From positions 282,297 to 346,296 of the forward strand of contig BPGL01000001.1 in assembly GCA_026003015.1 (NCBI GenBank): 64,000 nucleotides of DNA, written 5' to 3'. This DNA is from Actinomycetota bacterium (GTDB lineage Bacteria; Actinomycetota; UBA4738; HRBIN12). The first letter of the stretch is position 1; every line of letters starts with the position of its first letter. The position numbers and the translations under genes were made by a program. Below the pieces are notes generated by a model. That model saw only the letters and a program-made list of their open reading frames with translations. It did not search any database and was not told the DNA's origin. This document shows positions 5,795 through 55,271 of the stretch, one piece after another.

Positions 5795-6671
5795 ATGCGT
5801 CGCTTCGTGATCACGTCCGCGGCGGCATCGCTGATCGTGACGCTGCTCGTGCCCGGGTCCGCGCAGGCGGTCGGGGGTGGGGTCGTGGGCGGTCCTGAAG
5901 TGCAAGCTCGCCCACCACGCCTCGGACGACCCGATCGTGTTCCCGGGCCAGCCCGGGGGGTCGCACCTGCACTCGTTCTTCGGTGCCCGCGACGCCAACG
6001 CGTTCTCCACGTACGAGTCGATGCGCGCCGGGGGGACGACCTGCCCGCTCTCAGCCGACACCGCCGGCTACTGGGTCCCGACCCTGCGCGCTCCGACGGG
6101 TGAGCCCGCCCACGTGAAGGTGCTGAACGTCTACTACCGCGCGCCGACCGGCGTCTCGGTGCGGCCCTTCCCGCCGGACCTTCGGATCGTCGCGGGGGGC
6201 GATACGTTCAACCCGCCGGATCCCACGGCGTCGCAGCGCTCGCTGTCGTGGAGCTGCGTCGATCGCGGTCCGTTCTTCACCTCCCCGCCAACGTGCACGC
6301 AGGGCGCCGTGCGGGCGCACATCCACTTCCCGAGCTGCCTCGCGGCCGACCTGCCGACCGACTCGCCCGACCACCGTTCCCACATGGTGTACGGGTCGCG
6401 CGCGCTCTACGGGACGACGTGGTGTCCCTCGGGCTACGTGCCCGTGCCGAGGGTGACGTATCACGTCGTGTACGGGATCACCGACGGCGCCGGGTACCGG
6501 CTCTCCTCGGACATGGACTCCGTCGAGGGCGGACGGACCCTCCACGCGGACTTCTGGAACACCTGGGACCAGGCCGTCCTGGAGTTCCTGGTGGAGCGCT
6601 GCCTGAACGCGGGCGAGAACTGCAAGTCGATGACGGACGACGAGCTCGTCGCTCTCGGCTGGACGGGGTGA
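5795..6671 (+). CDS. Secreted DUF1996-like protein (one frameshift near 5875)
   Basis: Signal peptide MRRFVITSAAASLIVTLLVPGSAQA in one frame; DDPIVFPGQPG.SHLH.FFG, D..GYWVP, FP.C, LHADFWN.W in the next frame; the shift falls in a G-rich run. Confidence 0.8.
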
Positions 6672-7062: not shown

Positions 7063-7134
7063 GGGCGCGTAGCTCAGCGGGAGAGCGCTCGCCTCACACG
7101 CGAGAGGCCGCTGGTTCGATCCCAGCCGCGCCCA
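7063..7134 (+). tRNA. tRNA-Val(CAC)
   Basis: GGGCGCG acceptor stem, anticodon arm CTCGC-CTCACAC-GCGAG, GGTTCGATCCC; extended -10 TGcTATCGT at 7043-7051. Confidence 0.95.
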
Positions 7135-24524: not shown

Positions 24525-24860
24525 ATGATCGAGATCCTCGCCCAAGACGCCGCCGGCGGATCCGGCGGGCCTCTGTCCTTCCTCATCCTGCTCGTCCCGC
24601 TCGCGCTGCTGTTCCTGCTCATGCGGGGGCAGCGCAAGCGCATGGCGGAGCAGCAGGCGATCCAGCGCTCGGTCGCCGCCGGCGACGAGGTCCTCACCAC
24701 CTCCGGCATCTTCGGCCGGGTGGTGGGCGTCGAGGACGACGACGACACGCTGTGGGTGGAGATCGCGCCGGGCACGAGGGTTCGCATGGTCCGCGGTGGG
24801 ATCGCACGGCGCCTGGCCGAGGAGAGCGAGGGGGAGGGGGAGGCGACGGGGTCGGCGTGA
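24525..24860 (+). CDS. yajC: Preprotein translocase subunit YajC
   Basis: Single TM then Q.KR, GDEVLTTSGIFG.V, VEIAPG; SD GAGGGAG. Confidence 0.92.
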   Translation: MIEILAQDAAGGSGGPLSFLILLVPLALLFLLMRGQRKRMAEQQAIQRSVAAGDEVLTTSGIFGRVVGVEDDDDTLWVEIAPGTRVRMVRGGIARRLAEESEGEGEATGSA

Positions 24861-25627
24861 GCACGACCGGCCCGGTGGACCCCGTGGTCGACGGCGCCGC
24901 CGAGCGCGCGCCGGTCGTCCCGCCCCCCCACCCGGCTCAGCCCCACGAGCCGGGCGAGGAGGGCGTCGCCTCCATCACGCTCGAGCAGGTCCAGGCCGAC
25001 GAGCGGCTATCCCTGTACATCGCGTCGGCCGACCGCGTGACCGAGGCGATGGGCTACACCGAGCACGGGTTCCGCCACGCGAACCTCGTCGCGAGGATCG
25101 CCTACCAGGTCCTCCGGCGTCTCGGCTACTCCGAGCGCGAGGCCACGCTCGGGTGCGTCGCCGGGTACCTGCACGACGTCGGCAACGCCCTGGCCCGCGA
25201 CGCCCACGGGCAGACCGGCGCGATCCTCGTCCACCAGGTGCTGCGCGACCGCGTGGAGGGCCGGGATCTCATGCCGATCCTGGCCGCGATCGCCAACCAC
25301 GAGGAGGCCGAGGGCACGGCCGTGTCGGCGATCTCGGCGGCCGTGATCCTGGCCGACAAGTCCGACGTCCACCGCAGTCGCGTTCGCCGCAGCGGTCGCG
25401 TGGAGCACGACATCCACGACCGCGTCAACTACGCGGTGCAGCAGTCGTTCCTGCGCGTGGACGGCGAGGCCCGCACCGTGAGCCTCGAGCTCACCATCGA
25501 CACGGAGATCAGCCAGGTGATGGAGTACTTCGAGATCTTCTTGGGCCGGATGCAGATGTGCCGCTTCGCCGCGGAGATGCTCGACAGCCGCTTCCGGCTC
25601 GTGATCAACGGTGCGGAGCTGGCGTGA
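24857..25627 (+). CDS. HD-domain metal-dependent phosphohydrolase
   Basis: TEHGFRHA, LHDVGN, AH, ANH, ILADKSD, DIHDRVNYAV; GTGA-coupled to yajC and to secD. Confidence 0.88.
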   Translation: MSTTGPVDPVVDGAAERAPVVPPPHPAQPHEPGEEGVASITLEQVQADERLSLYIASADRVTEAMGYTEHGFRHANLVARIAYQVLRRLGYSEREATLGCVAGYLHDVGNALARDAHGQTGAILVHQVLRDRVEGRDLMPILAAIANHEEAEGTAVSAISAAVILADKSDVHRSRVRRSGRVEHDIHDRVNYAVQQSFLRVDGEARTVSLELTIDTEISQVMEYFEIFLGRMQMCRFAAEMLDSRFRLVINGAELA

Positions 25628-27768
25628 GGAACGCGCGGGCTCTGTGGGCCTCGGTCGTGTTCGTCGCCGTGCTCACCGCCGGGGCGACCGCAGGCCTGGC
25701 GACCGAGCGGCTGCGTCCCCTCCTCGGGCTTGACCTGCAGGGCGGGGTGGCGGTGATCCTGTCGGCTCCCGGCGGCACGCCCCCCGACGTGATGGAGCGG
25801 ACCCTGGAGACGATCCGCAACCGTGTCGACGCCTTCGGCGTGGCCGAGCCCGACATCTTCCTGGCGGGCACGACGATCGAGGTGCAGATCCCGGGGTCTT
25901 CGCAGAGCACGGTGGAGCGCCGGGCGGCGCAGGAGGTCTGCCTCGTGGGACGGGATGCCGAGGGCGCCCTGGTCTCCTACGGCTGCGCGCCGGACGCGGC
26001 CACCGCTGAGCAGGCGCTCACCGCCCTGAGGATCCGGCCCCAGCCGGACGAGGTCTGCCTGGAAGCGGAGGGCCGGCGCCTGCAGTGCTACGGCAGCCGC
26101 GCCGAGGCGCGCTTCGCGCAGGCGGGTCTGAGCGTCGCCGCGACCTCGAGCCCGACCCCGAGCGCCGTCGCGAGCCCCGGTCCGACCGCCGGCCCGGCGC
26201 CCCTGGGCGGGTCGGCGTGCATCGTCGATCCCCTCGGGACCGAGCTGGCGTGCTTCGGGTCTCGCTCGGCGGCCGAGCAGGCGCTCGAGGCGGTCGAGGC
26301 GGTCGTGACGCGCCGATCCTGGTGTGTGGTCGACGCGGGCGCGCGGGCCGCCTCGCCGACCCCGACCGCTACCCCCACGAGCTCGCCCGACGCCTCGCCG
26401 AGCCCGGCGCCGGCGGGGCTCGCGCTCCTGGACCGCACCGGGGCGGTCGATCTGCCGTGTGGGCTCGCGAGCGAGCAGGAGGCGACACGGGCGCTGGGGC
26501 AGATCCAGGCCCGGCCCGTCACCGAGCGCTTCTGCGTCGTGAGCGGAGCCGGAGAGGACCTCGGGTGCTTCCTGGACCGGCTGTCGGCCGAGCGCCGGCA
26601 GCGCGAGACGGGCCAGCAACGGCTGATCGAGGTGATCGGGGAGACGGCTCGGTTGGAGGAGCGACCGGTCCTCGAGATCGTCGGGCGAGGTGATCCGCGC
26701 TGGGCGGGGCTCGCCGTCACGTGCCCGACCCCGGAGGAGCAGCGAGAGCCCCGCTGCTCGTTCGAGGCCCTCGCCGACCAGGAGGTCGTCTACCTCGCCG
26801 AGGATCAGACGAAGTACCGCCTGGGGCCCGTCACGATCAGCGGGGCCGACTTCCGGGAGGCCACCGCGACGTTGCAGCCGTCCGGCTCGACGGGGGTCGT
26901 GACCGAGTGGGTCGTGCGGTTCGTGCTCGACGGCGACGGCGCGCGGCGCTTCGCCGACGCCACAACCCGGGCGGTCGCCGAGCCTGCGCCGCGCAACCAG
27001 ATCGCGATCGTCGTCGACCGGGTCGTCATCTCCGCCCCGGTCGTGAACGAGCCGATCACCCAAGGGGAGGGTGTGATCACCGGCGGTTTCACGGAGCAGG
27101 AGGCCAAGGATCTCGCGACCCAGCTGAACGCCGGCGCGCTGCCGGTGGAGCTCACGCGCCAGTCGGTGCGAACCGTGAGCCCGACGCTCGGGGAGGAGTC
27201 GCTGCGCCAAGCGGTGGCCGCCGGGCTCGGAGGGCTGGCGCTGCTGTTCGTCTACCTGTTGCTGTACTACCGGATGCTCGGCGTCGTCGCGAGCCTGGGG
27301 ATGGCGATCTGGGCGGCCCTGGCGGTCGCGCTCGTCGCCCTGGCGGGCAGCTCGGTCGGTTACGCGCTGAGCCTGGCCGGCGTGGCCGGCCTGCTCATCT
27401 CCCTGGGGGTCACCGCCGACTCCTACATCGTCTTCTTCGAGCGGCTGAAGGACGAGATCCGGGCCGGCCGATCGCCGCGCGCCGCGGTGCAGCCGGCGTT
27501 CAAGCGGGCGTTCCGAACCCTGATCGCGGCCGACATCGTGACGTTGATCGCCGCGGGGGTCCTGTACCTCACCGCGGTGAGCTCGGTGCGGGGCTTCGCC
27601 CTGACGCTCGGGGTGGCCACCCTCCTGGACGTGTTCGTGATCTGGTTCTACAAGCGCCCCGTGGTGTTCTTGCTCGCCCGCAGCCGCAGGATCGTCGAGC
27701 TGCCCGGCATCGGGCTGCTGTCGTCCGTCGCGGCCGAGCGCCCGGGTCGGCGATCGGAGGTGTCGTGA
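25624..27768 (+). CDS. secD: Protein translocase subunit SecD with a large Cys-rich insertion
   Basis: LGLDLQGG, IRNRVDAFGVAEP, IAIVVD..VISAP, LNAGALP, VSPTLG, GVTADSYIVFFER.KDE, VRGFALTL. Confidence 0.96.
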   Translation: MRNARALWASVVFVAVLTAGATAGLATERLRPLLGLDLQGGVAVILSAPGGTPPDVMERTLETIRNRVDAFGVAEPDIFLAGTTIEVQIPGSSQSTVERRAAQEVCLVGRDAEGALVSYGCAPDAATAEQALTALRIRPQPDEVCLEAEGRRLQCYGSRAEARFAQAGLSVAATSSPTPSAVASPGPTAGPAPLGGSACIVDPLGTELACFGSRSAAEQALEAVEAVVTRRSWCVVDAGARAASPTPTATPTSSPDASPSPAPAGLALLDRTGAVDLPCGLASEQEATRALGQIQARPVTERFCVVSGAGEDLGCFLDRLSAERRQRETGQQRLIEVIGETARLEERPVLEIVGRGDPRWAGLAVTCPTPEEQREPRCSFEALADQEVVYLAEDQTKYRLGPVTISGADFREATATLQPSGSTGVVTEWVVRFVLDGDGARRFADATTRAVAEPAPRNQIAIVVDRVVISAPVVNEPITQGEGVITGGFTEQEAKDLATQLNAGALPVELTRQSVRTVSPTLGEESLRQAVAAGLGGLALLFVYLLLYYRMLGVVASLGMAIWAALAVALVALAGSSVGYALSLAGVAGLLISLGVTADSYIVFFERLKDEIRAGRSPRAAVQPAFKRAFRTLIAADIVTLIAAGVLYLTAVSSVRGFALTLGVATLLDVFVIWFYKRPVVFLLARSRRIVELPGIGLLSSVAAERPGRRSEVS
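25930..26610 (+). repeat. Five protein-level repeats with paired Cys inside SecD
   Basis: Cys pairs at codons 25939/25984, 26056/26086, 26218/26251, 26323/26458 and 26533/26566, each followed by an A-x-x-A type helix. Confidence 0.8.
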
Positions 27769-28847
27769 ACCTCCACAGGGCGATCGCGGTCTACCGCGGT
27801 CAGCGGGTCCCCACGTTCCGGTTGATCGAGCACCGGCGGCGGTGGTTCCTCTTCTCCGGGGCGATCGTCGCCCTCTCGCTGGTGGGGCTGGTCGTGGGGG
27901 GCCTCGCGTACTCGATCGACTTCGTCGGTGGCGCGCAGGTGACGGTGCCGCTCGCTCGTCGGGTCTCGGTCCAGCAGATCACGAGCCTGCTCGCCGAGCG
28001 CGGCCTCGACCAGGCCGAGGTCCAGATCGTCGACGGCCGGGCGGCGAGCATCCGGACCGGCTCGCTCTCAGACGAGGGGCGCGACGCGGAAGCGATCCTC
28101 GAGGACCTGGCGCGCCTCGCGGGGGTGGATCGGGCCGACATCAGCGTCGAGGACGTCGGCCCGACGTGGGGATCGGAGATCTCGCGCAAGGCGATCCAAG
28201 GGCTCGTGATCGTGCTCGGGCTCATCCTGCTGTACATCGCCTACCGGTTCGAGTGGGCGATGGGGATCGCGGCGATCGTGGCGCTCGTGCACGACATCGT
28301 GGTCACCGCGGGGATCTACGCGCTCGTGGGACGTCCGGTGACGCCCGAGACGGTGATCGCGGTCCTCACGATCATGGGCTTCTCCCTCTACGACACCGTC
28401 GTGATCTTCGACAAGGTGCAGGAGAACCTCGAGTCCCCGACGCTGATCGGGCGGTACGGCTACGACGGGGTCGTGAACCTGTCGCTGAACACCGTGCTGA
28501 TGCGGTCGGTGAACACCTCGCTCGTCGTCCTGTTGCCGATCACCGCGATGCTGCTGTTCGGCGGCGAGACGCTCAAGGACTTCGCCTTCGCGATGCTCGT
28601 GGGCACGGCCGCGGGAACGTACTCGTCGATCTTCGTCGCCGCCCCCCTGCTCACCGTGCTCAAGGCGCGCTCGGAGCGCGTCCGCGTCGTCGAGCGTCGA
28701 CGGGCCCGCGACCGCCGACCGGTCCCGGCCGGGGCCGCGACGAGCGCCGACGAGCGCACCCCCGAACCCGAGGCCCGCCCGGCGAGCCCCCGCTCGCGCC
28801 GATCGGCGTCGAAGCGGCGCCCGCCGGCCAAGCGCAGACGGAGGTAG
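27765..28847 (+). CDS. secF: Protein translocase subunit SecF
   Basis: SIDFVGG, VGPTWG, RFEW, ALVHD, GFSLYDTVVIFDK..EN, RSVNTS, GTYSSIFVA. Confidence 0.96.
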   Translation: MNLHRAIAVYRGQRVPTFRLIEHRRRWFLFSGAIVALSLVGLVVGGLAYSIDFVGGAQVTVPLARRVSVQQITSLLAERGLDQAEVQIVDGRAASIRTGSLSDEGRDAEAILEDLARLAGVDRADISVEDVGPTWGSEISRKAIQGLVIVLGLILLYIAYRFEWAMGIAAIVALVHDIVVTAGIYALVGRPVTPETVIAVLTIMGFSLYDTVVIFDKVQENLESPTLIGRYGYDGVVNLSLNTVLMRSVNTSLVVLLPITAMLLFGGETLKDFAFAMLVGTAAGTYSSIFVAAPLLTVLKARSERVRVVERRRARDRRPVPAGAATSADERTPEPEARPASPRSRRSASKRRPPAKRRRR

Positions 28848-36289: not shown

Positions 36290-37535
36290 GTGACCGAGGT
36301 GCCGCTCGCCGCCCGGATGCGCCCTCGGACCTTCGACGAGTTCGTGGGGCAGCCGCACCTCATCGGGCCGGGACGGGCCCTCACCAAGCTGCTCGAGGCC
36401 GGGCACCTGCCCTCGCTGCTCCTCTGGGGCCCCGCGGGGACCGGGAAGACCACGCTCGCCTACCTGCTGGCCGACGCCGTCGGGGCCGAGCTCGTGCAGC
36501 TGTCGGCGGTGTCCTCCGGCGTGGCCGACGCCCGCCGGGTGATGGAGCGGGCCAGGGCGGCCTGTTCCGGACGGTCCTCTTCGTGGACGAGGTGCACCGG
36601 TGGTCCAAGGCCCAGCAGGACGTGCTCCTGCCCGCGGTCGAGGACGGGACGATCACGCTGATCGGGGCGACCACCGAGAACCCCTACTCTCCCTCGTGAC
36701 GCGCCGCTCCTCTCGCGCTGCCTGCTCCTGCGCCTCGAGCCCCTCGCGCCCGAGGAGGTCCGCACGGCTGCTCGAGCCGGGCCCTCGCCGACGAGGAGCG
36801 GGGGCTCGGCGAAGCTCGGGCGTCCGCGTCCGCCCCGAGGCCCTCGACCATCTCGTCGAGGTGGCCGGGGGCGACGCGCGGATCGCGCTCACCGGGCTGG
36901 AGGCGGCCGTGGTCGCGGCGCGCGCGGCCGGCGAGCGCGAGGTCACGCTGGAGCGCGCGGCCGGGACGCCGTGCAGAAGAAGCGCGATCGTGTACGACCG
37001 GCAGGGGGACGCCCACTACGACGTGATCTCGGCCTTCATCAAGTCGATCCGCGGCTCGGACCCCGACGCCGCCCTGTTCTGGCTGGCGAGGATGCTCGAG
37101 GCGGGGGAGGACCCGCGCTTCATCGCCCGCCGGATGGTCGTCCATGCGAGCGAGGACATCGGCCTCGCGGACCCCCGAGCGCTCCTCGTCGCCGTGGCGG
37201 CGGCCCAGGCGGTGGAGTACGTGGGACTGCCCGAGGCCCGACTGAACCTGGCGGAGGCCGCGATCTACCTGGCCCGGGCGCCGAAGTCCAACAGCGTCCT
37301 CGTGGCGCTCTCGCGGGCGCAGGAGGACGCCGCCTCCTCGGACCCGGTGCCGCTGCACCTCCGCGAGCCCGGGCACCCGGCCCTGCGCGAGCACGGGTAC
37401 GGCGAGGGCTACAAGTACCCCCACGACTTCCCCGGACACGTGGTGGAGCAGGAGTACCGGCCGGCCCGCTTCAGCGGGCGGCGGTACTACGAACCCTCGG
37501 GGCAGGGGGAGGAGGGATCGGAGGAGCGGGCCTGA
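36290..37535 (+). CDS. rarA: Replication-associated recombination protein A (AAA+, MgsA/RarA), several indels
   Basis: [74 protein letters not shown]. Confidence 0.93.
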
Positions 37536-45971: not shown

Positions 45972-47142
45972 TGATGAGCATCGCGAGCGCCGGACGAGCA
46001 GGAGGTGGCGATCCCGATCCCCGAGCTCCTCGAGGTCGTCCTGGAGCGAGGAGCGTCGGACCTGCACCTCACGGCAGGGGCTCCGCCGACGATCCGTCTC
46101 CACGGCGACCTCGTCAGGCTGGACGAGTACCCCGTGATGACCCCGCAGGGCCTCCAGGGGATGATCTACGCGATCCTGCCGCAGCGGATGCGGGAGCGCT
46201 TGGAGCAGGACCTCGAGCTCGACATGTCGCTACTCGCTCCCCGGGAAGGCCCGGTTCCGCGTGAACGTGTACTTCCAGCGGGACTCGATCGGGGCCGCGT
46301 TCCGCCTGATCCCCTACGAGATCAAGACCATCGAGGAGCTCGGGCTGCCGCAGCGTGGTGGCGGACCTGGCCCGCTACCCCCGCGGGTTCGTGGTCGTGA
46401 CCGGGCCCACCGGGTCCGGGAAGTCGACGACCCTCGCCGCCATGGTGGACATCGTGAACCGCGAGCGCCGGCCCACATCATGACGGTGGAGGACCCCATC
46501 GAGTTCCTCCACAAGCACCAGAACTGCATCGTGAACCAGCGGGAGGTCGGCGCCGACACGCACAGCTTCGCCGCCGCCCTCAAGCACGTCCTGCGCCAGG
46601 ACCCGGACGTGATCCTCGTGGGCGAGATGCGCGACCTGGAGACGATCTCCACGGCCATCACCGCGGCCGAGACGGGGCACCTGGTCTTCGCCACCCTGCA
46701 CACGCAGGACGCCCCGCAGACGATCGACCGCATCATCGACGTCTTCCCGCCGCACCAGCAGCAGCAGGTCCGGGTGCAGCTCGCCACGACCCTCCAGGGC
46801 GTCGTGACCCAGCAGCTGCTCCAGACGGCGGACGGTCGGGGGCGGGTGGTGGCGGTCGAGGTCCTCGTGTGCACCCCCGCCGTCCGGAACCTGATCCGCG
46901 AGGGCAAGACCCACCAGATCTACTCGATCATGCAGGCCGGCGGCCGGTTCGGGATGCAGACGATGGACCAGGCCCTCGCCAACCTGGTGAAGGCGGGCAA
47001 GATCACCCAGCAGCTCGCGTACGAGCGCTGCCACGATCCCGAGGAGCTGAACCGGCTGATCGGCGGGGCGAGCGCCGGCTACCAGGCCGGCGCCGGGGCC
47101 GCGGCGGCCGTCGGGCTGTCCGTCGGCGGGTACCAGTACTGA
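45971..47142 (+). CDS. pilT: Type IV pilus retraction ATPase PilT (indels; start approximate)
   Basis: [68 protein letters not shown]. Confidence 0.95.
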
Positions 47143-47162
47143 GGCCGAGGAGCGCGAGCGCC

Positions 47163-48378
47163 ATGCCGACCACGTTCGAGTACAAGGTCCGGGACCGCGC
47201 CGGGAACCTGGTCACGGGGCAGCTCGTCGGGGACAGCGAGCTGATCGTCCTCCAGAAGCTCCGCGAGCAGGGCCTGACCCCCATCGAGGTCCGGAAGGCG
47301 AACGCCGGGCTCCGGATGGAGATCAACCTCCGCCCGGGCCGGGTGAAGCTGAAGGATCTGGCGGTCTTCTGCCGCCAGTTCGCCACCATGGTGAACTCCG
47401 GGCTGCCGATCCTGCGCGCGCTCGCGATCCTCGCCGAGCAGACCGCGAGCAAGGAGCTGCAGAAGATCCTCACCCAGGTCCGGACCGACGTCGAGCAGGG
47501 CTCCTCCCTCTCGGGGGCGCTGGCCAAGCACCCCAAGGCCTTCAGCGACCTGTTCGTCGCGATGGTCCGGGCCGGGGAGACCGGGGGCGTGCTCGACGAC
47601 GTCCTCCTCGACGGCGGCCGAGACGATCGAGAACGAGGTCGAGCTGCGCCGGAAGATCAAGTCGGCGATGACCTACCCGGTCGTGGTCGTGGTCCTCGTC
47701 GTCGCTGATCATGGCGGCCATGCTCCTCTTCATCGTGCCGCAGTTCGAGGCGATCTACGCCAGCCTGGACAGCCCGCTGCCCCTGCCGACGCGGATGCTC
47801 CTCGGCGCCTCGCGGCTCGTCCGCACGTTCTGGTGGCTCGTGCTCCTCGGGGCGATCGGCGGTCGGTTCGCGTTCCGCCGCTACAAGCGGACGCCGGCCG
47901 GGCGGGCCCAGGTCGACGCGCTGAAGCTCCGGGTCCCCGTCTTCGGTCCGCTGTTCCACAAGGCGGCCCTGGCCCGGTTCTCGAGCACCTTCGGGATGCT
48001 GCTGCAGCTCCGGCGTCCCCATCCTCCAGGCCCTGGAGATCGTGAAGGACACGGTGAACAACCAGGTCATCGCCCGGGCCGTGGCGGACGTCAAGGGGAG
48101 CGTGCGGGAGGGCGAGTCGATCGCCAAGCCCCTCGCCAAGCACGCCGTCTTCCCCCCCATGGTGGTGCAGATGCTCGCGGTGGGGGAGGAGACCGGCGCC
48201 GGTCGACACCATGCTCGACAAGGTCGCCCAGTTCTACAACTCGGAGGTGGAGGCGACGGTCGACGCCCTCACCTCCCTCATCGAGCCGCTGCTGATCGCG
48301 GTCATCGGCGGGGCGGTCGGTGCCGCCGTCATCGCCCTCTACATGCCGATGTTCAACATCATCAACCTGATCCAGTGA
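47163..48378 (+). CDS. pilC: Type IV pilus platform protein PilC (T2SSF family; indels)
   Basis: F.RQFATMV.SGLP, G.SLS.AL.KHPK.F, AGETGG.LD, KSAMTYP, LP.PT, FPPMVVQM.AVGEETG, IEP.L, MPMF. Confidence 0.94.
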
Positions 48379-48389
48379 TCCGCCCTCGC

Positions 48390-48416
48390 CCGGCCCCGGA
48401 GCGATCCGGGGGCCGG
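48390..48416 (+). terminator. GC-rich hairpin after pilC
   Basis: CCGGCCCCGGA-GCGA-TCCGGGGGCCGG, with a GNRA loop. Confidence 0.55.
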
Positions 48417-48420
48417 CCGG

Positions 48421-48448
48421 CTCAAGGAGCGGCCCGAAGCGGCCGAAA
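48421..48448 (+). promoter_or_regulatory. sigma28/WhiG/FliA-type promoter upstream of the major pilin
   Basis: CTCAAG-N15-GCCGAAA. Confidence 0.7.
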
Positions 48449-48505
48449 CCTTGAGGCGACGCGCATCACGGGGATGCGCGCGGACCTTCCTGGAAGGAGG
48501 GAGAC

Positions 48506-48991
48506 ATGCTCAAGGGGCTCTTGAAGCGGGTCCGCGAGGACGAGGGCTTCACCCTGATCGAGCTGATGGTGGTCGTCCTGATCATCGGCATCCTGGTCGC
48601 CATCGCTCTGCCCACGTTCCTCGGGGCTCGCGAGCGCGCCCAGAACCGGGCCGCGCAGTCGTCGCTCCGCAACGCCCTCGCGGCCGCGAAGACGGCGTTC
48701 ACGGACACCGACGACTACAGCGGCGCGACCGACGCCGACCTGGACGCGATCGAGCCGTCCCTCACGTACGTCGACGGCACCACGGCCTCTACCGGGCCGA
48801 CCGAGGTGAGCGTCTCGGTCTACAACTCGGACGCCAACTGGGCCGCGGCCGCGATGTCGGAGTCCGGGACGTGCTTCTGGATCGACGACGTGTCCGCCGG
48901 CACCGGCGCCGGGACCTTCTACGGGTCGACGACGACCGCCGCCGACTGCACGGGCGCAGACGCCCAGGGCGCGAGCGCGAGCAGCTGGTAA
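48506..48991 (+). CDS. pilA: Major type IVa pilin
   Basis: Class III signal EDEG|FTLIELMVVVLIIGILVAIA.P; C-terminal Cys pair; strong SD AAGGAGG; own promoter and terminator. Confidence 0.93.
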   Translation: MLKGLLKRVREDEGFTLIELMVVVLIIGILVAIALPTFLGARERAQNRAAQSSLRNALAAAKTAFTDTDDYSGATDADLDAIEPSLTYVDGTTASTGPTEVSVSVYNSDANWAAAAMSESGTCFWIDDVSAGTGAGTFYGSTTTAADCTGADAQGASASSW

Positions 48992-49043
48992 GCCGACGGC
49001 TTACCGGCGCAGCATGGAGGGGCGGCCTGCGGGCCGCCCCTCC
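48985..49043 (+). terminator. Two tandem hairpins after pilA
   Basis: GGTAAGCC-GAC-GGCTTACC (48987-49005) and a perfect 12-bp stem GGAGGGGCGGCC-TGCG-GGCCGCCCCTCC (49016-49043). Confidence 0.7.
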
Positions 49044-49070
49044 GCCGTTCCCCGGTCGGTCGAGGAGAGG

Positions 49071-49098
49071 CTCAAGGGGGTCCCCCGACCGACCGAAA
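49071..49098 (+). promoter_or_regulatory. sigma28/WhiG/FliA-type promoter upstream of the minor pilin operon
   Basis: CTCAAG-N15-ACCGAAA; same spacing and CCGAAACC core as the pilA promoter. Confidence 0.7.
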
Positions 49099-49113
49099 CC
49101 CATGGGGAGAGCC

Positions 49114-50389
49114 ATGCGGAACCCGCGCGCGCACCCGCACCGCCTCCGCCGTGAGGAGGGCTTCACGCTGGTCGAGGCGATGGCCTCGCTCACGATCCTC
49201 ACCGTGGCGGCCTTCGCGATCGCCCAGGCGATCGCCTTCGGTCTGAAGACGAGCGGCATGTCCCGCCAGCGCCTCGCGGCCCGGGCGGCGGCCGAGCAGC
49301 AGATGGAGCTCGCCCGCGCGCTCAACTACGACACCCTGGTGCTCAACGACGCGGCGCCGATCCCCCATGAGAGCGACCCGAGCCACCCCGACCACTGGGT
49401 GAACGAGGCGGCGCAGACGTTCGACCCCGACGGCGCCGGCAGCCTCGCCGCGGAGCCGATCATCCGCCAGGCGGGCGCCTCACCGGCCCTGCAGCACGTC
49501 CAGGCCCCCTTCGAGGCGGGGAACACCTCGTTCGAGGTCTACCTGTACGTGACGTGGGTGGACGCGCCCGGGGACGGGTTGGGGGTCGGCCGACGCGGCC
49601 GACGGTGACGGCGACGGCGTCTCGGACGCGAACGGCCAGGACCACAAGCGCGTGACCGTGGCGGTCCGTTGGCGCGACGGCGCGACCGGCGACTGGCGCC
49701 TCGAGCGGATGAGCTCGCTGTTCTCGCGAGGCGTCGTGCCCTACCACGCGACCTCGGGCACGCCCTCGCCGAGCCCCTTGGGATCCCCGAGCCCCTCGCC
49801 CTCGCCGAGCCCGTCGCCCCTCGCCGAGCCCGTCGGGATCCGGGCCCGCCTGCAGCGTGACGATCGCCGGCGGCGCCGCCTACACGACGCAGACCGTCGT
49901 CACGCTCACGCTCTCCTCGAGCCAGAGCCCGACCCACATGCAGTTCTCGAACGACGGCTCGACCTGGGGGACGAAGGAGGCGTACGCGACCTCGACGATC
50001 TACACGCTGCCCTCGGGGGGGAGGGGACGAAGACGGTCTACGTCCGGTGCTGGACGAACGACACCGTCGGGCCGGTGGCGAGCGACACGATCATCCTCGA
50101 CTCGACGCCGCCGGGTGCCCCGACGAACCTGCAGGCCTCCTCGAGCGTGTCCGGGTCGACGAGGTACGTGACGCTCACGTGGTCCGCGCCCTCGCCGCTC
50201 GGCGACGTCGTCGGCTACCGCGTGTACCGGAGGCTCACGACCTCGAGCACGTGGACCCAGGTCGCGTGCAGCGGATCGGGAACGACCTGCTCCGACAGCT
50301 TCAAGAAGCAGGACCACTACGAGTACTACGTCGTCTCCTACGACGCGGCCGGCAATGAGAGCGCGCACAGCAACCACGTCACGGTCTAG
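49114..50389 (+). CDS. Large minor pilin (PilV-like) with acidic DxDGDG loop, Pro/Ser linker, Ig-like and fibronectin type III domains (indels near 49590, 49850, 50020)
   Basis: EEG|FTLVEAM; DGDGDGVSD; PSPSPSPSP; TIAGGAAYT...FSNDG..W...GTKTVYV...DTIILD; PGAPTNL...LTWSAP...YRVYR...YYVVSYDAAGNES. Confidence 0.75.
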
Positions 50390-50871
50390 CGAGCAGGGCT
50401 TCACCCTCGTGGAGCTCCTGGTCACCTTCGCGCTGCTCGGCATCGTCGCGACGGCGGTGATCGGGATCGCGATGCGGGCGTTCTCCGACACCGCGACGAT
50501 CGTCGATCGCCGCGACGTGTTCGCCGACGGGCGGCTCGCGCTGGACCGGCTGAGCAAGCAGCTCCGGCAGGCCGAGTCGATCGACACCGCCTGGAGCACC
50601 ACGAGGCAGGTCAGGTTCACCGGCTACCTCAACGGGGCGAGTCGGGACGTTCGCCTGGCGCGTCGTCGGCTCAGCGCCTCCGTACCGCCTGCAGGAGTCC
50701 CGCAACGGCGGCACGACCTACACGACGGTCGTCTCGTCGCTCGCGAGCCCGGATGTGTTCACGCTGACGACGCACGGCGGGGTCGCCGACCAGGTGACGA
50801 TCGACCTGACGCTCACGACCCGCACGACGACCGTCGCCCTCAGATCCGACGTCTTCTTGCGCAACGCCTGA
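50355..50871 (+). CDS. Minor pilin (PilW-like; frameshift near 50645)
   Basis: EQG|FTLVELLV, R.ALDRL.KQLRQA, C-terminal V.LRN. Confidence 0.85.
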
Positions 50872-50884
50872 GAGGAGTTCATCG

Positions 50885-52355
50885 ATGCGCGCGTTCGACC
50901 GACTCCAGCGAGACGAGGGTGGGTACGCCCTCGCGATCACCGTCCTGCTCGTGGCGGTGATGATGGTCCTGATGGTGGTGTCGCTCGACGCGGGGTCGTC
51001 GGCGCTGCGCCGGAGCCAGGAGGGGCTGCGCTGGGCCCGCACGCTGACGGTGGCGGAAGCGGGGATCAACCAGGCGATCACCCAGCTCTCGCAGAACCGG
51101 ACGGCCGCGTCCCCGTGCCCGCTGGGATCCACGAGTGTGTGCACCGGTGAGGGCGGACAGTTCCAGGTGAGCTGGACCGGCCAGGCCGACGGGAGCCTCG
51201 TCGTGAACGCGCGCGGCTACTACCCGTCGCTCGCCTCGCCGCGGGTACCAGCGCGAGGTACGCGTCGTGCTCGAGCCGGTGCCGACCTTCCGCTACGCGC
51301 TGTTCTCCCTGGACACCCTCACGGTGAAGAACAACGCGGTGATCGTCGGCGACGTGTACTCGGCTGCGAGCGTGGCCGTCGACCAGAACCAGGTGATCTG
51401 CGGCAGCGTGATCGCCGCCGGCGGCAACGTCTCGATCGGGAACAACACGCAGATCGTCAGGTCGCACGCGTCCTCGGGATGCTCGGGGAAGGACGGCAGC
51501 GTCTGGGCGAACGGATCGATCAGCCTCGGCACGACCGCGACGGTCGGCGGGGACGCGAAGGCCTCGGCGCCGAGCGGCACCACGTGCAACGCGACGTCGA
51601 CGAGCTACCAGATCACCGACGGGCAGGTCCAGGGCAACGCGACCGCCTGCGGCCGGATCACCTCGACCGTCGGGGGGACGCGCTCCCCGGGCACGAACAC
51701 GACGCCGCCGGCGGTGGAGCCCCTGCCGACCTTCACGTTCGACGTGAACAACTACCCGAGCCTGCAGTGCTACCCGAGCACCGGGACCTGCGGCCCGAGC
51801 AACACGTCGACGACCGCGGTCTCCTCCTTCAACACCTACGTCTCGGCGAACAAGACCTCGCTGCGGGGCACCTTCGCAGTGTGGCAGTCGAGCCCCTCGC
51901 AGTCGACGAAGGTCAACCTCGACGGGATCCGGCTCGGCGGCGACCTCACGATCATCACGAACGCGCCGGTCGACTTCGGCAACACCTCGGACGTGACGCT
52001 CGCGCCGGGGGTGAGCTCGGCCGAGCTCGTGATCGTTTCGTTGTACGTGCCGCCGGTGAACACGACGTGCGATACGAACGGGGGCGAGTGCAGCATCTAC
52101 GCGAAGAACTCGGTCACGTTCGACGACGGGGTCGACGCGGACCCCAACGACGGGATCGCCGCCCTGCTGTACACGCCGGGGAAGATGGCCTTCAAGAACT
52201 CGGGCGGCTCGAACAGCAACGGCGAGGGCGCCCTGTACGCGGGCGGGATGGACCTGAAGAACGGGTTCCAGATCGAGTACAACGGGCGCATCCAGAAGGT
52301 CCTGGGGTTCGGCGTCGGGCTCGAGCAGACCCTCTGGCAGGAGCTGAACGTCTGA
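50885..52355 (+). CDS. PilX-like minor pilin with a large Cys-containing, beta-rich C-terminal domain (frameshift near 51250)
   Basis: DEGG|YALAITVLL (no Glu5), VAEAGINQA PilX motif, F.YALFS, repeated V.GD/G.V.A.G.V.I units, ends WQEL. Confidence 0.8.
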
Positions 52356-52397
52356 GCTTCCCCGATCCCGAACCGTGTCGGCGGTAGGGTGCCGCCG

Positions 52398-53177
52398 ATG
52401 AGCGACGCGTGGGTGCGAGCGCTGGTCGCGCTCCCGTTCGGCCTGGTGATCGGCAGCTTCATGACCGTCGTCGTCGCCCGCGTGCCGACCGGGGCATCGG
52501 TCGTGCGCCCCCGCTCGCGGTGCCCGTCGTGCGGGGGGCCGGTCCGCGCGCGCGACAACGTCCCGGTGCTGAGCTGGGTGCTGCTGCGCGGTCGGTGCCG
52601 CGCGTGCCGCGCCCCGATCTCGGTGGCCTACCCCCTCCTGGAGCTCTCGACGGCGGTGCTGTTCGCGGGGTCGTTCGCCGCGCACGCCGATCCCTGGGCC
52701 GGTGCGCTCGTCGCCGCGCTCCTGTCGCTCATGCCGGCGATCGCCGCGATCGACCTTCGCCACCGCATCATCCCGAACCGCCTCATGTACCCGGCGCTTG
52801 CCGCCTTCCCGCTCTTCGTGCTCCTCGGGTGGCTCGCAGGAGGGACCCCGGATCCGGTGCGGGCGGCGATTGGGTTCGCGGCCTTCGGGGGAGGCCTGTT
52901 CCTGGTCGCCATCGTGAGCGGCGGGATGGGGATGGGCGACGTCAAGCTGGCCGCCCTGGAGGGCGTCGCCCTCGGGGCGCTGGGCCTTGCCCGGGTCGGG
53001 GTCGCCGCGGGGGTCGCCGTCGCGGTGGGTGGCCTGGTCGCGATCGCGGCCCTGCTCGCCGGGCGTGGACGGCGGGCCGCGATCCCGTTCGGCCCGTCGC
53101 TCGCCGCCGGGGCCGTGGCGGCCGGCCTGTGGGGTCCGCAGCTCGCCGACCTGTACCTCCGGGCGCTGCGCGGCTAG
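52398..53177 (+). CDS. pilD: Prepilin peptidase/N-methyltransferase (A24)
   Basis: GSF..VV..RVP, RSRCPSC, DNVPVLSW..LRGRCRAC, IDL....IPN, GMG.GDVKL, IPFGP; TAGGGT -10 7 nt upstream. Confidence 0.95.
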   Translation: MSDAWVRALVALPFGLVIGSFMTVVVARVPTGASVVRPRSRCPSCGGPVRARDNVPVLSWVLLRGRCRACRAPISVAYPLLELSTAVLFAGSFAAHADPWAGALVAALLSLMPAIAAIDLRHRIIPNRLMYPALAAFPLFVLLGWLAGGTPDPVRAAIGFAAFGGGLFLVAIVSGGMGMGDVKLAALEGVALGALGLARVGVAAGVAVAVGGLVAIAALLAGRGRRAAIPFGPSLAAGAVAAGLWGPQLADLYLRALRG

Positions 53178-53314
53178 GGCGAGGGCGACGCCGCCCGATC
53201 CCGACCGTCTCGGGCTGCAGCAGCTGCCGGTCCAGAAAGTCCCCGGAGGTGTTTGACTCGGCCCTCGCCGCGGTGTTCCCTGAGCGCGCTCGTGACGGCC
53301 GATGCGCCGAGACG

Positions 53315-53350
53315 AGCCACATGTTGAACACGAGGCACATGGAGCACATC
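53315..53350 (+). repeat. Four tandem imperfect 9-bp direct repeats
   Basis: AGCCACATG/TTGAACACG/AGGCACATG/GAGCACATC, with ACA at the same register in all four, overlapping the start of the HTH gene. Confidence 0.6.
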
Positions 53351-53587
53351 CACTTCCCCGCTCCGCTCCGTGAGGCGACGGACCCCGGCCGCGAGCCCGG
53401 CCGCCCCGGGGTCCTGCTCACCGTCGCCGAGGTCGCGGCGATCCTTCGCGTCTCGACGATGACGGTCTACCGCTTGATCCGCACCGGGCAGCTGGCCGCG
53501 GTGCGCGTGGGCCACGGCTGGAGGATCCCGCAGGACGCCGTCGAGCGCTACCTCGCGTCCCGCACGGTCGGCGTGGAGGAGGCCTGA
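53339..53587 (+). CDS. Excisionase/BldC-like MerR-type winged-HTH DNA-binding protein
   Basis: LLTVAEVAAILRVSTMTVYRLIRTGQLAAVRVGHGWRIP...V..YL; TGATG-coupled to pilM; start ATG 53339 or 53321. Confidence 0.88.
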   Translation: MEHIHFPAPLREATDPGREPGRPGVLLTVAEVAAILRVSTMTVYRLIRTGQLAAVRVGHGWRIPQDAVERYLASRTVGVEEA

Positions 53588-54654
53588 TGGCCCGCGGCAG
53601 GATCGGCCTCGACATCGGCTCGACCGCCGTGCGCGCGGCCGAGGTCGCCTGGACCGCGGCCCCCGCCGTCGTACGCGCGGCCCAGGTTCCGCTGCCCGCC
53701 GGCGCCGTGGAGAGCGGGGAGGTCCGCGACGCCGAGGCCGTGGCGGCGGCTCTCAAGGAGCTGTGGCACGAGGGCGGCTTCAAGGCCCGCCAGGTCTGGA
53801 TGGGGATCGGGAACCAGCGGGTCTTCGTGCGGGAGGTGGTGATCCCCTGGCTCCCGGACAAGGAGCTCCGCGCGTCGCTGCCGCTGCAGGTTCAGGAGTT
53901 CCTGCCGATGTCCGCCGACGAGGTCGTCCTCGATCACGTCCCGGTCGCGGAGTTCGAGCAGGAGGACCGCCGGATGCTGCGGATCCTGCTCGTGGCGGCC
54001 CAGCGGACCGCGGTCGACGCGGCGGTGCGCGCGGTGCAGGCGGCGCGCTTGGAGCCGCTGGGCCTCGATCTCGTCCCCTTCGCCCTCGTGCGCGCCGTGG
54101 GGACCGACGACGGCGCCCTGGGGCTCGAGGAGCAGGGGGAGGAGGCGATCGTCGACATCGGCGCGCACGTGACGAACATCGTCGTCCACGCGCGCGGCAC
54201 GACCCGGTTCGTGCGGATCGTCCCGGCGGGCGGACGCGACATCACGACCGCGGTCGCGCGAGCCTTCGGGGTCGACGACGAGCTCGCCGAGCGACTGAAG
54301 CGCGGCGAGCCGGTGGGCGACCAGGAGGCCGCCGAGCCCCCGGCGCCAGACGAGGTCCGCTCCGTGGCGTTGACGCGTGCCGCGGCCTTCGTCGACGAGA
54401 TCCGTTCCTCGCTCGAGTTCTACACGGCGCAGGCCAAGGACGCTCGGATCGGCAGGCTCCTGGTCACCGGGGGTGGATCGAAGCTCGACGGGCTCCTGGA
54501 CGTGATGCGCGAGCGGATCCCCCTGCCGGTGGACCCAGCCCGCGTCTTCGAGCACGTCGCCTCCCAGCTCAGCTGGAGCCCCGAGGAGGCGGCCGACCAC
54601 GAGCCGCTGCTCACCGTCGCGGTCGGCCTCGCGATCCCGGGGAGGGACGCGTGA
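53587..54654 (+). CDS. pilM: Type IV pilus assembly protein PilM
   Basis: Actin-like fold: IGLDIGSTAVR, LP.GAV..GE, VDIGA..T, EIRSSL.FY, VTGGGS, AVGLA. Confidence 0.94.
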   Translation: MARGRIGLDIGSTAVRAAEVAWTAAPAVVRAAQVPLPAGAVESGEVRDAEAVAAALKELWHEGGFKARQVWMGIGNQRVFVREVVIPWLPDKELRASLPLQVQEFLPMSADEVVLDHVPVAEFEQEDRRMLRILLVAAQRTAVDAAVRAVQAARLEPLGLDLVPFALVRAVGTDDGALGLEEQGEEAIVDIGAHVTNIVVHARGTTRFVRIVPAGGRDITTAVARAFGVDDELAERLKRGEPVGDQEAAEPPAPDEVRSVALTRAAAFVDEIRSSLEFYTAQAKDARIGRLLVTGGGSKLDGLLDVMRERIPLPVDPARVFEHVASQLSWSPEEAADHEPLLTVAVGLAIPGRDA

Positions 54655-55271
54655 GCCAGGTCAACCTGCTGCCGCCCGAGGTCCTCGAGGCTCAGCGCTG
54701 GCGTCGCCTGTCGGGGCTCATCGCGATCGGCGGGCTCGCGGTGATCGGGCTCATCCTCGTCTTCTACCTGATGCAGGTCGTGACGCTGGGGGGTGTGCGC
54801 GACGACATCGACGCGCAGCGGGCGACGAACGCGCAGCTGCAGTCCCAGGTCGCGGAGCTCCAGCGCTTCGAGGACCTGCAGATCCGCGCCCAGGCCAAGC
54901 AGGAGCTCCTCGGCGCCGCCTTCGCCGGCGAGACGAGCCTGTCGGGGCTGCTGATGGACCTGTCGCGGGTGATCCCCTCCGACGCCGCGTTGGACTCGCT
55001 CACGGTGAGCCTCACGCCGCCGAGCGACGAGGACGAGCCCGCCGAGCCGGGGGCGCCGGTGTTCGTCGGCACGATCTCGACGACCGGGGCCGCCGAGGGC
55101 ATCGACTCGCTCAGCACCTGGCTCACGCGCCTCGAGCAGGTCGAGGGCTGGGTCAACCCGTGGATGAGCTCGATCTCGCGGCGGGAGGCGGGCGATGACG
55201 TCTTCACGTTCACCTCGGGCGTCGACCTCACCTCCGACGTCCTCACGAGCCGGGGGCGGCAGGTCGGATGA
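54651..55271 (+). CDS. pilN: Type IV pilus assembly protein PilN
   Basis: QVNLLPPE N-terminal PilM-binding motif, TM, coiled coil, L..LS..IP. Confidence 0.9.
   Translation: MSQVNLLPPEVLEAQRWRRLSGLIAIGGLAVIGLILVFYLMQVVTLGGVRDDIDAQRATNAQLQSQVAELQRFEDLQIRAQAKQELLGAAFAGETSLSGLLMDLSRVIPSDAALDSLTVSLTPPSDEDEPAEPGAPVFVGTISTTGAAEGIDSLSTWLTRLEQVEGWVNPWMSSISRREAGDDVFTFTSGVDLTSDVLTSRGRQVG

Follow-up and report, generated by a model that had tools for sequence, protein, structure and literature searches.

The SecD protein encoded in a stretch of 64,000 nucleotides from an Actinomycetota bacterium (contig BPGL01000001.1, positions 282,297 to 346,296 of the forward strand; hereafter the window) carries an insert of 241 amino acids in the base of its extracytoplasmic P1 domain, and this insert consists of five tandem units with one cysteine pair each. 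Very probably, it is a genuine and hitherto undescribed repeat domain of SecD, of the disulfide type. The best explanation overall, which we consider rather likely to be correct, is that the domain is a structural extension growing out of the P1 base, stapled by disulfides, and not a catalyst. An earlier reading of the DNA, made from the sequence only, had singled out the insert and suggested several possible roles for it. The gene and the parts of its product are listed below, with nucleotide positions in the window and amino acid (aa) positions in SecD; AF2 stands for AlphaFold2 and pLDDT for the predicted local distance difference test score.

25624..27768, + strand: secD coding sequence, 714 aa; the GTG start overlaps the 3' end of the upstream HD-domain gene
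25636..25701, + strand: first transmembrane helix (TM1), aa 5-26, from the AF2 helix and the alignment to Thermus thermophilus SecDF
25876..25896, + strand: strand IEVQIPG of the native P1 base, aa 85-91; the insert follows directly
25897..26619, + strand: insert, aa 92-332 (241 aa), with five tandem Cys-pair units and two low-complexity stretches
25918..26046, + strand: unit 1, Cys 106/121; C-x14-C here, x9 to x14 in the family
26035..26148, + strand: unit 2, Cys 145/155
26149..26205, + strand: linker between units 2 and 3, aa 176-194, rich in Pro, Thr, Ser and Ala; pLDDT below 50 in the full-length model
26197..26313, + strand: unit 3, Cys 199/210
26302..26520, + strand: unit 4, Cys 234/279; hairpin interrupted by a Pro/Thr/Ser loop
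26347..26403, + strand: low-complexity loop within the unit 4 hairpin, aa 242-260; pLDDT below 50
26512..26619, + strand: unit 5, Cys 304/315; the best-conserved unit
26620..26670, + strand: helix and strand of the native P1 base, RLIEVIGETARLEERPV, aa 333-349, continuing towards the P1 head
26722..26757, + strand: sixth Cys pair, aa 367/378, C-x10-C; clade-specific, between the P1-base strand and the P1 head
26782..27147, + strand: P1 head subdomain, aa 387-508 (Pfam SecDF_P1_head)
27148..27678, + strand: SecD C-terminal transmembrane domain, aa 509-685 (Pfam SecD_SecF_C, MMPL; long helices in AF2)

The host protein is SecD by every test applied. Its reading frame, with the GTG at 25624 as start and a stop codon at 27766-27768, is uninterrupted, as had been claimed. 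TIGR01129, the secD model of NCBIfam, matches with 306.6 bits (cut-off 244.4), in two stretches that flank the insert. Three Pfam domains are found: SecD_1st at aa 57-93 (44.7 bits, gathering score 27, profile positions 1-38 of 60), SecDF_P1_head at aa 387-508 (94.5 bits, E 4.9e-27) and SecD_SecF_C at aa 509-685 (54.6 bits). The protein matches solved SecDF chains at E 1e-56 in a sequence comparison with the PDB, and a Foldseek search with the full-length AF2 model returned SecDF structures only (E 6e-17). The next long helices of that model after TM1 start at aa 521, and what lies between TM1 and about aa 520 is the P1 loop, on the extracytoplasmic side; the side of the membrane on which the insert lies is given by homology with solved SecDF.

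In the window, the insert is flanked by IEVQIPG and RLIEVIGETARLE. Two peptide patterns were used to fish 75 genome loci, nine of them short or off-site; 65 loci cover the site and the flanking secD sequence, which together with the window makes 66 genes. The distance between the two motifs is bimodal in this set, with 5 residues in 31 genes, 187-276 residues in 35 (window included) and nothing in between. Every one of the 31 complete insert-less relatives has the 5-residue gap, with no Cys in it, in keeping with the earlier statement that the motifs are normally a few residues apart. The SecD_1st profile is split by the insert after position 38 of 60, and since this profile breaks off and TIGR01129 matches in two stretches, the insertion is inside the P1 base and not the P1 head. 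The sequence-only reading had put the insert on P1, which is right as far as the P1 loop goes, while the part that bears it is the base and not the head, where substrates are captured. Likewise, the start that it gave (25897) is retained and its end (26613) moves by 6 nucleotides, to the boundary at 26619. The five units themselves stand between the motifs exactly as it had quoted them.

The insert behaves as coding sequence throughout. Its third-position GC content is 0.93, with 0.93 and 0.95 in the two flanks, and both other forward frames contain stops. The ratio of nonsynonymous to synonymous substitution rates (dN/dS, Nei-Gojobori) over the insert is 0.15-0.35 in eight of eight close pairs; the insert is under purifying selection. 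The identical protein is on record in a cluster whose 9 members come from 3 contigs, and the same architecture occurs in the complete loci of 34 other species-level genomes. Misassembly, which had been named at the outset as something that would overturn the finding, is therefore unlikely.

The cysteines of the insert lie at aa 106/121, 145/155, 199/210, 234/279 and 304/315 of SecD, and exactly ten are found in all 35 complete insert-bearing SecDs. Together with the additional pair downstream, 11 of the 12 Cys are invariant among 31 orthologues and the twelfth is at least 90% conserved, at an insert identity of only 28-50%; the conservation of the pairs in orthologues that the sequence-only reading had made a test of its proposal is thus borne out. 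Counts in 139 database proteins that have both flanking motifs point the same way: ten insert Cys in 127 of them, eight in 9, nine in 2 and twelve in 1. Seven of the nine proteins with eight Cys are intact, and in all seven both Cys of a single unit have been replaced together. The pair lost is that of unit 1 in P0113 and that of unit 4 in P0132, P0151, P0153, P0156, P0161 and P0167, with D/H, G/N, N/N, N/S or N/D in place of the cysteines. Those with 9 or 12 Cys, like the other two with 8, are predictions affected by a frameshift, a truncation or an internal deletion. In the AF2 model of the insert, the first Cys of a hairpin is near the end of strand 1 and the second is at the end of the return strand, such that paired Cys come within one position of facing each other (counted from the AF2 strand limits). 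Conservation, paired loss and extracytoplasmic location thus suggest that the cysteines pair within units as disulfides. One publication (PMC2823432) describes, for aerobic Actinobacteria, a bias of exported proteins towards even numbers of Cys that is indicative of disulfide formation.

The pair at nucleotides 26722/26755, which had been noted before as following the insert, is confirmed as well. Both of its Cys are present in 35 of 35 insert-bearers; among the insert-less proteins, Cys occurs at position 367 in 0 of 31 and at position 378 in 9 of 31. That it might be a degenerate sixth unit was considered and rejected, with a profile probability of 0.3% against the unit. Some Acidimicrobiales SecDs have another Cys pair between the base strand and the head (RPVLC ... 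C-P-T).

The insert is built of five homologous units of about 35 aa, each with one C-x10-C pair (median spacing). When units were cut from an alignment of 35 inserts and their profiles compared pairwise, nine of the ten pairs gave probabilities of 91-98% (scores 27-51), the tenth, unit 4 with unit 5, giving 39%; 20 comparisons with reversed units as controls gave at most 8.8% (scores 8-14). The comparison with reversed controls thus upholds the tandem-repeat character that the sequence-only reading had assigned to the insert. In a merged alignment of 125 units, two Cys are invariant and one Ala nearly so, and the consensus is C-x10-C-F-x5-A-x2-A-L-x4-V. The distance from the second Cys of one unit to the first Cys of the next is 22-24 residues for the steps from unit 1 to 2, 3 to 4 and 4 to 5, and 23-62 for the step from 2 to 3. 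As a signature for the family we propose C-x(9-14)-C-[FY], a helix with A-x-x-A-L and then a strand, in five copies between IEVQIPG and IGxTARLE; all five units are present in the SecD of the window. Unit 4 has a Cys spacing of 10-74 across the family and is an ordinary hairpin in the compact forms described below, from most of which the linker between units 2 and 3 is missing also. Of the two Pro/Thr/Ser-rich linkers between units that had been described, then, one does join units 2 and 3, and the other turns out to be a loop inside the hairpin of unit 4. Mean column conservation is 0.59 for unit 5 and 0.42-0.47 for units 1-4. The conserved positions other than Cys are Ala, Gly and Val, residue types that look like those of a core. 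Charge is not conserved: the isoelectric point ranges from 4.05 to 9.15, and with a median net charge of -15 most inserts are strongly acidic. The low-complexity loops within unit 4 and between units 2 and 3 can add up to 64 residues.

An AF2 model of the insert alone, made with the 35-sequence alignment, has a mean pLDDT of 89.7 and a predicted template modelling score (pTM) of 0.74. Through units 1 and 2 the model runs long strand, short strand, helix, long strand, short strand, helix, strand; after the linker it continues with strand, strand, helix, long strand, then the loop, and then helix, long strand, strand, helix. In insert numbering, unit 1 has strands at residues 5-19 and 25-31 and a helix at 34-42, and unit 2 has strands at 44-57 and 60-65, a helix at 68-76 and a strand at 79-82. 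The hairpin-helix(-strand) modules that had been predicted from the sequence are therefore seen in the model. Since a long strand closes one unit and also opens the hairpin of the next, the units share strands and are not beads on a string. In the full-length AF2 model the units have pLDDT values of 85-93, and the helix of unit 5 runs on into the native P1-base helix (aa 319-339).

Neither the insert nor its unit could be assigned to a described family. No Pfam or NCBIfam model matches at its cut-off; CHASE8, SPOR, IF3_N and others appear below threshold. CHASE8 (PF17152) is the most frequent of the weak Pfam signals, with E values of 1 or below in 15 of 35 inserts and a best score of 24.4 bits against 27. 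The match covers profile positions of about 17-87 of 102 and lies on the stretch from the helix to the next unit, in units 1-2 or 4-5. Since the units concerned differ from protein to protein, the match mirrors the repeat pattern as such, and it might be the trace of a very remote relationship; no structural or functional description of CHASE8 that would allow a comparison was found in the literature. SPOR (PF05036) gives E values of 1 or below in 8 of 35 inserts, the best at 15.4 bits and E 0.024 against a gathering score of 21, and in none does it reach the cut-off. Profile searches with insert and units against PDB chains produced only noise (E 0.18-3.1). The best Foldseek match in the PDB, 7b5h_AD (E 9.7e-4), was rejected as a repetitive-sheet artefact, with template modelling scores of 0.18/0.07 and a root-mean-square deviation (rmsd) of 14 A. 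Foldseek found no match in BFVD at E of 1e-3 or below; strand-helix-strand overlaps of about 29 residues with small phage proteins occur there at E above 1 (rmsd 0.4-1.0 A), one of the proteins is named a SPOR domain protein, and this is the sole recurrent structural signal. The ESM Atlas gave no usable match for the whole insert or for units 1-2. Whether the unit arose as a copy of the strand-helix-strand that the P1 base has natively was also considered; such an origin is unsupported (profile probability 0.7% with 31 insert-less SecDs). No description of such a SecD insertion was found in open-access full text. The initial impression that the insert is not a named family thus holds for Pfam and NCBIfam at their cut-offs, and for the PDB, BFVD and the ESM Atlas, where no match is convincing.

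The domain appears to be tied to SecD. A search with the insert in a protein collection clustered at 90% identity gave 33 proteins, all with SecD domains; the few that are named belong to metagenome-assembled genomes of Actinomycetota. A phmmer search of 1.84 billion representatives gave 44 proteins at E of 1e-3 or below, of which 21 have SecD Pfam domains, 14 more match the flanks of the window SecD by BLAST, and the remaining 9 are short or frameshifted pieces without any other domain. A search of longer proteins with the unit profile, in which only the 8000 candidates sharing most words were scored, had 126 matches; 119 of the 120 listed have SecD domains, and one is a fragment. Among the phmmer matches, the listed unit-profile matches and the 75 loci, the module was found in no host other than SecD. 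Variation in copy number, which the sequence-only reading had proposed to look for, was likewise found in none of these three sets: there are always five units, at the same site. P0023 (1095 aa) is an insert-bearing SecD fused to SecF in a single polypeptide.

A SecD tree was built with the insert columns left out, from 65 rows, the truncated locus L008 being omitted. The 34 insert-bearers on it form one side of a branch with a support of 100 in the Shimodaira-Hasegawa-like approximate likelihood ratio test (SH-aLRT), and a single change is sufficient to explain the distribution; since the tree is unrooted, this change is one gain or one loss alike. The insert-less rows, where named, are mostly of Acidimicrobiia type, a neighbourhood that is biased by the two peptide patterns with which the loci were fished. 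Inserts of at least 231 residues make up one subclade of 17 rows, including the window. All members of this long-form subclade have the Pro/Thr/Ser loop in the unit 4 hairpin, and nearly all have low-complexity sequence in the junction of units 2 and 3 as well. Inserts in the remaining 17 rows are compact, at 187-229 aa, and because these forms do without the low-complexity stretches, the latter are dispensable additions of one subclade.

How might such an array work? We suggest that each unit would fold once the P1 loop is outside the membrane, and that one disulfide within each unit would then lock it, by way of the extracytoplasmic oxidative-folding system usual in Actinobacteria. The product would be a rigid, protease-resistant outgrowth of the platform formed by the P1 base and P4, adjoining the hinge of the mobile P1 head. 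The shared strands would make the array rigid, and the array would serve as a buttress or an extension of the platform, perhaps with sheet edges to which emerging chains or partner proteins could attach. It is by inference that the array is called rigid, that it is placed with respect to the head and P4, and that it might act on translocation. According to one report on SecDF (PMC5974789), the P1-base/P4 platform switches between sheet and barrel and the P1 head is mobile, and in E. coli engineered disulfides that restrain P1 abolish SecDF function. On that footing, an addition at the base may tune the cycle. The low conservation outside the core, the unconserved charge and the tolerance of long loops favour a scaffold over a site-specific binder. 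That the role is mainly structural, rather than one in binding a ligand, the wall or a substrate, we put at slightly less than even odds, with less assurance than for the outgrowth as such.

Several observations weigh against this interpretation. Every intact protein has five units, and the surfaces, variable as they are, are under purifying selection, which fits binding equally well. The disulfides are deduced rather than seen, and no gene for a disulfide-forming enzyme was found among the 59 genes called in the window by a crude GC3-based caller. The pTM of the full-length model is 0.39, too low for the model to show how the module is placed against the P1 head, P4 or the membrane. All relatives are known from metagenome-assembled genomes. 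Finally, considering that restraint of P1 by engineered disulfides abolishes function in E. coli (PMC5974789), it is difficult to see a rigid addition to the base as obviously neutral, and it may have an active role.

Perhaps the best of the alternatives, unlikely as we think it, is that the small alpha/beta modules, with sheet edges exposed beside the P1 head, form an arm for unfolded preproteins, many of them with Cys, that are emerging from SecYEG; by analogy, it would act as a POTRA array does beside BamA. The module directly adjoins the strand that leads into the P1 head, long continuous strands join its units and the unit number is fixed at five; moreover, P1 is the part of SecDF that contacts preproteins, according to PMC5974789. 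Yet the insert is on the base, and it is the head that has the known substrate cavity; among the Pfam families, none of the POTRA or chaperone kind is matched; and the search for a conserved patch on the surface came up empty, since units other than unit 5 are poorly conserved (0.42-0.47), with conservation apparently confined to the core. In a broader version, the array would be a new disulfide-locked binding family and a second working surface of SecDF, holding emerging Cys-rich preproteins up to their oxidation or tethering the translocon to peptidoglycan by means of SPOR-like pairs of units; the HD-domain gene directly upstream of secD, specific to the clade, may have evolved in concert with it. 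We rate this version as improbable too. If it were true, the lineage would have coupled export to folding, or to position at the wall, within the SecD polypeptide.

Somewhat less likely again is a contact with the cell wall, in which pairs of units would form SPOR-like domains that bind the glycan strands of peptidoglycan and so tether SecDF to the wall or to places where the wall is being made. The repeat period of about 35 residues is that of half a SPOR domain, and read from the second strand of a hairpin, the predicted order of elements, taken by itself, is strand-helix-strand-strand-helix-strand, which as an order is compatible with the SPOR fold and its four-stranded sheet. To this can be added the sub-threshold SPOR signal in 8 of 35 inserts and the overlaps of about 29 residues in BFVD, one of them with a named SPOR domain protein. 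These signals are countered by the searches themselves: all SPOR matches stay below 21 bits and 27 of 35 inserts have none, what Foldseek matched is a single generic strand-helix-strand at E above 1, and no SPOR structure came up in the PDB profile searches or among the 50 Foldseek PDB matches listed. In addition, the strongly acidic character of most inserts (median net charge -15) is unexpected of a glycan binder.

A thiol-redox module, with Cys pairs cycling between dithiol and disulfide and passing oxidising equivalents to Cys-rich exported proteins, is very improbable. Twelve conserved extracytoplasmic Cys near the exit of the translocon do speak for it, as do the Cys-containing exported proteins that the sequence-only reading placed in the window, of which a DUF1996 protein and pilin-like genes have been confirmed by Pfam. 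There is no CxxC, however; the Cys spacing is 9-14 (10-74 in unit 4) and never 2, and the pairs lie across hairpins, as is typical of structural staples. No thioredoxin, Dsb or VKOR family of Pfam or NCBIfam is matched in SecD or its insert, the operon has no gene for a redox partner, and complete Cys pairs have been replaced in seven otherwise intact orthologues. With neither a CxxC nor a thioredoxin-type match, and with whole pairs dispensable in some lineages, this earlier idea is disfavoured. The weakest alternative, that the insert is an artefact of misassembly, frameshifted read-through or a decaying gene, might appeal to the many database matches that are frameshifted metagenome fragments, and is next to negligible given the open frame with a third-position GC content of 0.93, the identical protein on 3 contigs, the same architecture in 34 other complete loci from different genomes, a dN/dS well below 1 and the confident fold prediction.

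In the general export pathway, SecDF acts as the pulling factor, driven by protons, and a domain of 190-280 residues with five putative disulfides that a whole lineage keeps in the platform is a natural experiment on the carrying capacity of the base. It is equally an experiment on whether further functions can be accommodated on the outer face of SecDF. As for the unit, it seems to represent a small fold family not described before, compact, stapled by disulfides and with room for long loops, and as such it should be useful for domain databases. The host is an ordinary SecD; the novelty lies in the inserted domain, and no long-standing question is settled by it.

The genes next to secD that bear on its context are the following.

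24525..24860, + strand: yajC (Pfam YajC, E 5e-20)
24857..25627, + strand: HD-domain gene between yajC and secD (Pfam HD, E 8.8e-07; NCBIfam HDIG below cut-off)
27765..28847, + strand: secF (TIGR00966, 289.8 bits; Pfam), without a Cys-rich insertion

The gene context of secD is a housekeeping one, with the conserved order ruvCAB-yajC-(HD)-secD-secF-apt-relA. In the window, the order is thrS, pdxT, yebC, ruvC-ruvA-ruvB, yajC, the HD-domain gene, secD and secF, followed by apt, relA, hisS, aspS, a type IV pilus cluster, aroC, efp, nusB, pyrR and pyrB, and GC content around secD is about 0.64-0.81 in windows of 300 bases. The gene order around secD is familiar from Actinobacteria. The HD-domain gene has an uncertain start codon, its homology spans about 220 aa, and it abuts or overlaps the start of secD. 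By tblastn it is present in 33 of 34 complete insert loci and in the broken insert-type locus L035, at 67-84% identity. In the insert-less loci it was not found; for 28 of these 31, the upstream sequence extends over 700 nucleotides or more. It may be a clade marker only, or it may be functionally tied to the insert-bearing secD. Translation-arrest peptides upstream of Sec/YidC genes are reportedly widespread in bacteria (PMC10987492).

Elsewhere in the window, the pilus cluster at 46480-55271 encodes a T2SSE ATPase, a T2SSF platform protein, a prepilin peptidase (A24), PilM and PilN, together with a pilin with an N-terminal methylation motif and several small open reading frames (ORFs) of no family; the DUF1996 protein is encoded at 5877-6671. 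The ORF of the pilus ATPase, 46480-47139, covers only the C-terminal part of its profile, and an AAA+ gene of MgsA/RarA type is in two pieces, at 36290-36658 and 36861-37532; both may be due to frameshifts or to faults of the crude GC3-based gene caller. Four tRNA genes lie at 1602-1674, 2382-2453, 2496-2567 and 7063-7134, and no rRNA gene was found in the 64,000 nucleotides.

Several known systems can be compared with the insert. CHASE8, a periplasmic sensor domain, stays below its 27-bit cut-off in all 35 inserts, with only part of the profile covered. The SPOR domain is alike in being a small extracytoplasmic alpha/beta module made of strand-helix-strand halves of about 35 residues; it differs in that the insert unit has one hairpin strand more, as well as its conserved pair of Cys, neither of which is known as a SPOR feature. 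POTRA arrays of the BamA/TamA type offer no more than an analogy, in that they are tandem small alpha/beta modules on the far side of a translocation machine. POTRA modules have about 75 residues and a different order of elements and are not known to have Cys pairs; the Pfam scans gave no POTRA match, and no evidence from sequence or fold links them to the insert.

Closer to home, a number of insert-less SecDs of Acidimicrobiia type have Thr/Pro-rich expansions (L043-L045, L050, L053, L058-L062, L064 and L069-L074). These expansions enlarge the P1 region too, as the insert does. They are unstructured, however, and lie after the ...RPVL strand and before the head, without repeats and without the Cys pairs of the repeat, whereas the insert is structured and elsewhere. 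The nearest comparison is with canonical SecD and SecDF (T. thermophilus 3AQP/5YHF, Deinococcus 5XAN), whose domain order is that of the SecD in the window: TM1, P1 base, P1 head and a six-helix C-terminal domain, with secF adjacent and yajC upstream in both cases. In solved and insert-less SecDs, only a few residues separate the base strand from the base helix; in the insert-bearers, the same step takes 187-276 residues, among them ten Cys, and an additional Cys pair that is specific to the clade lies between the base and the head.

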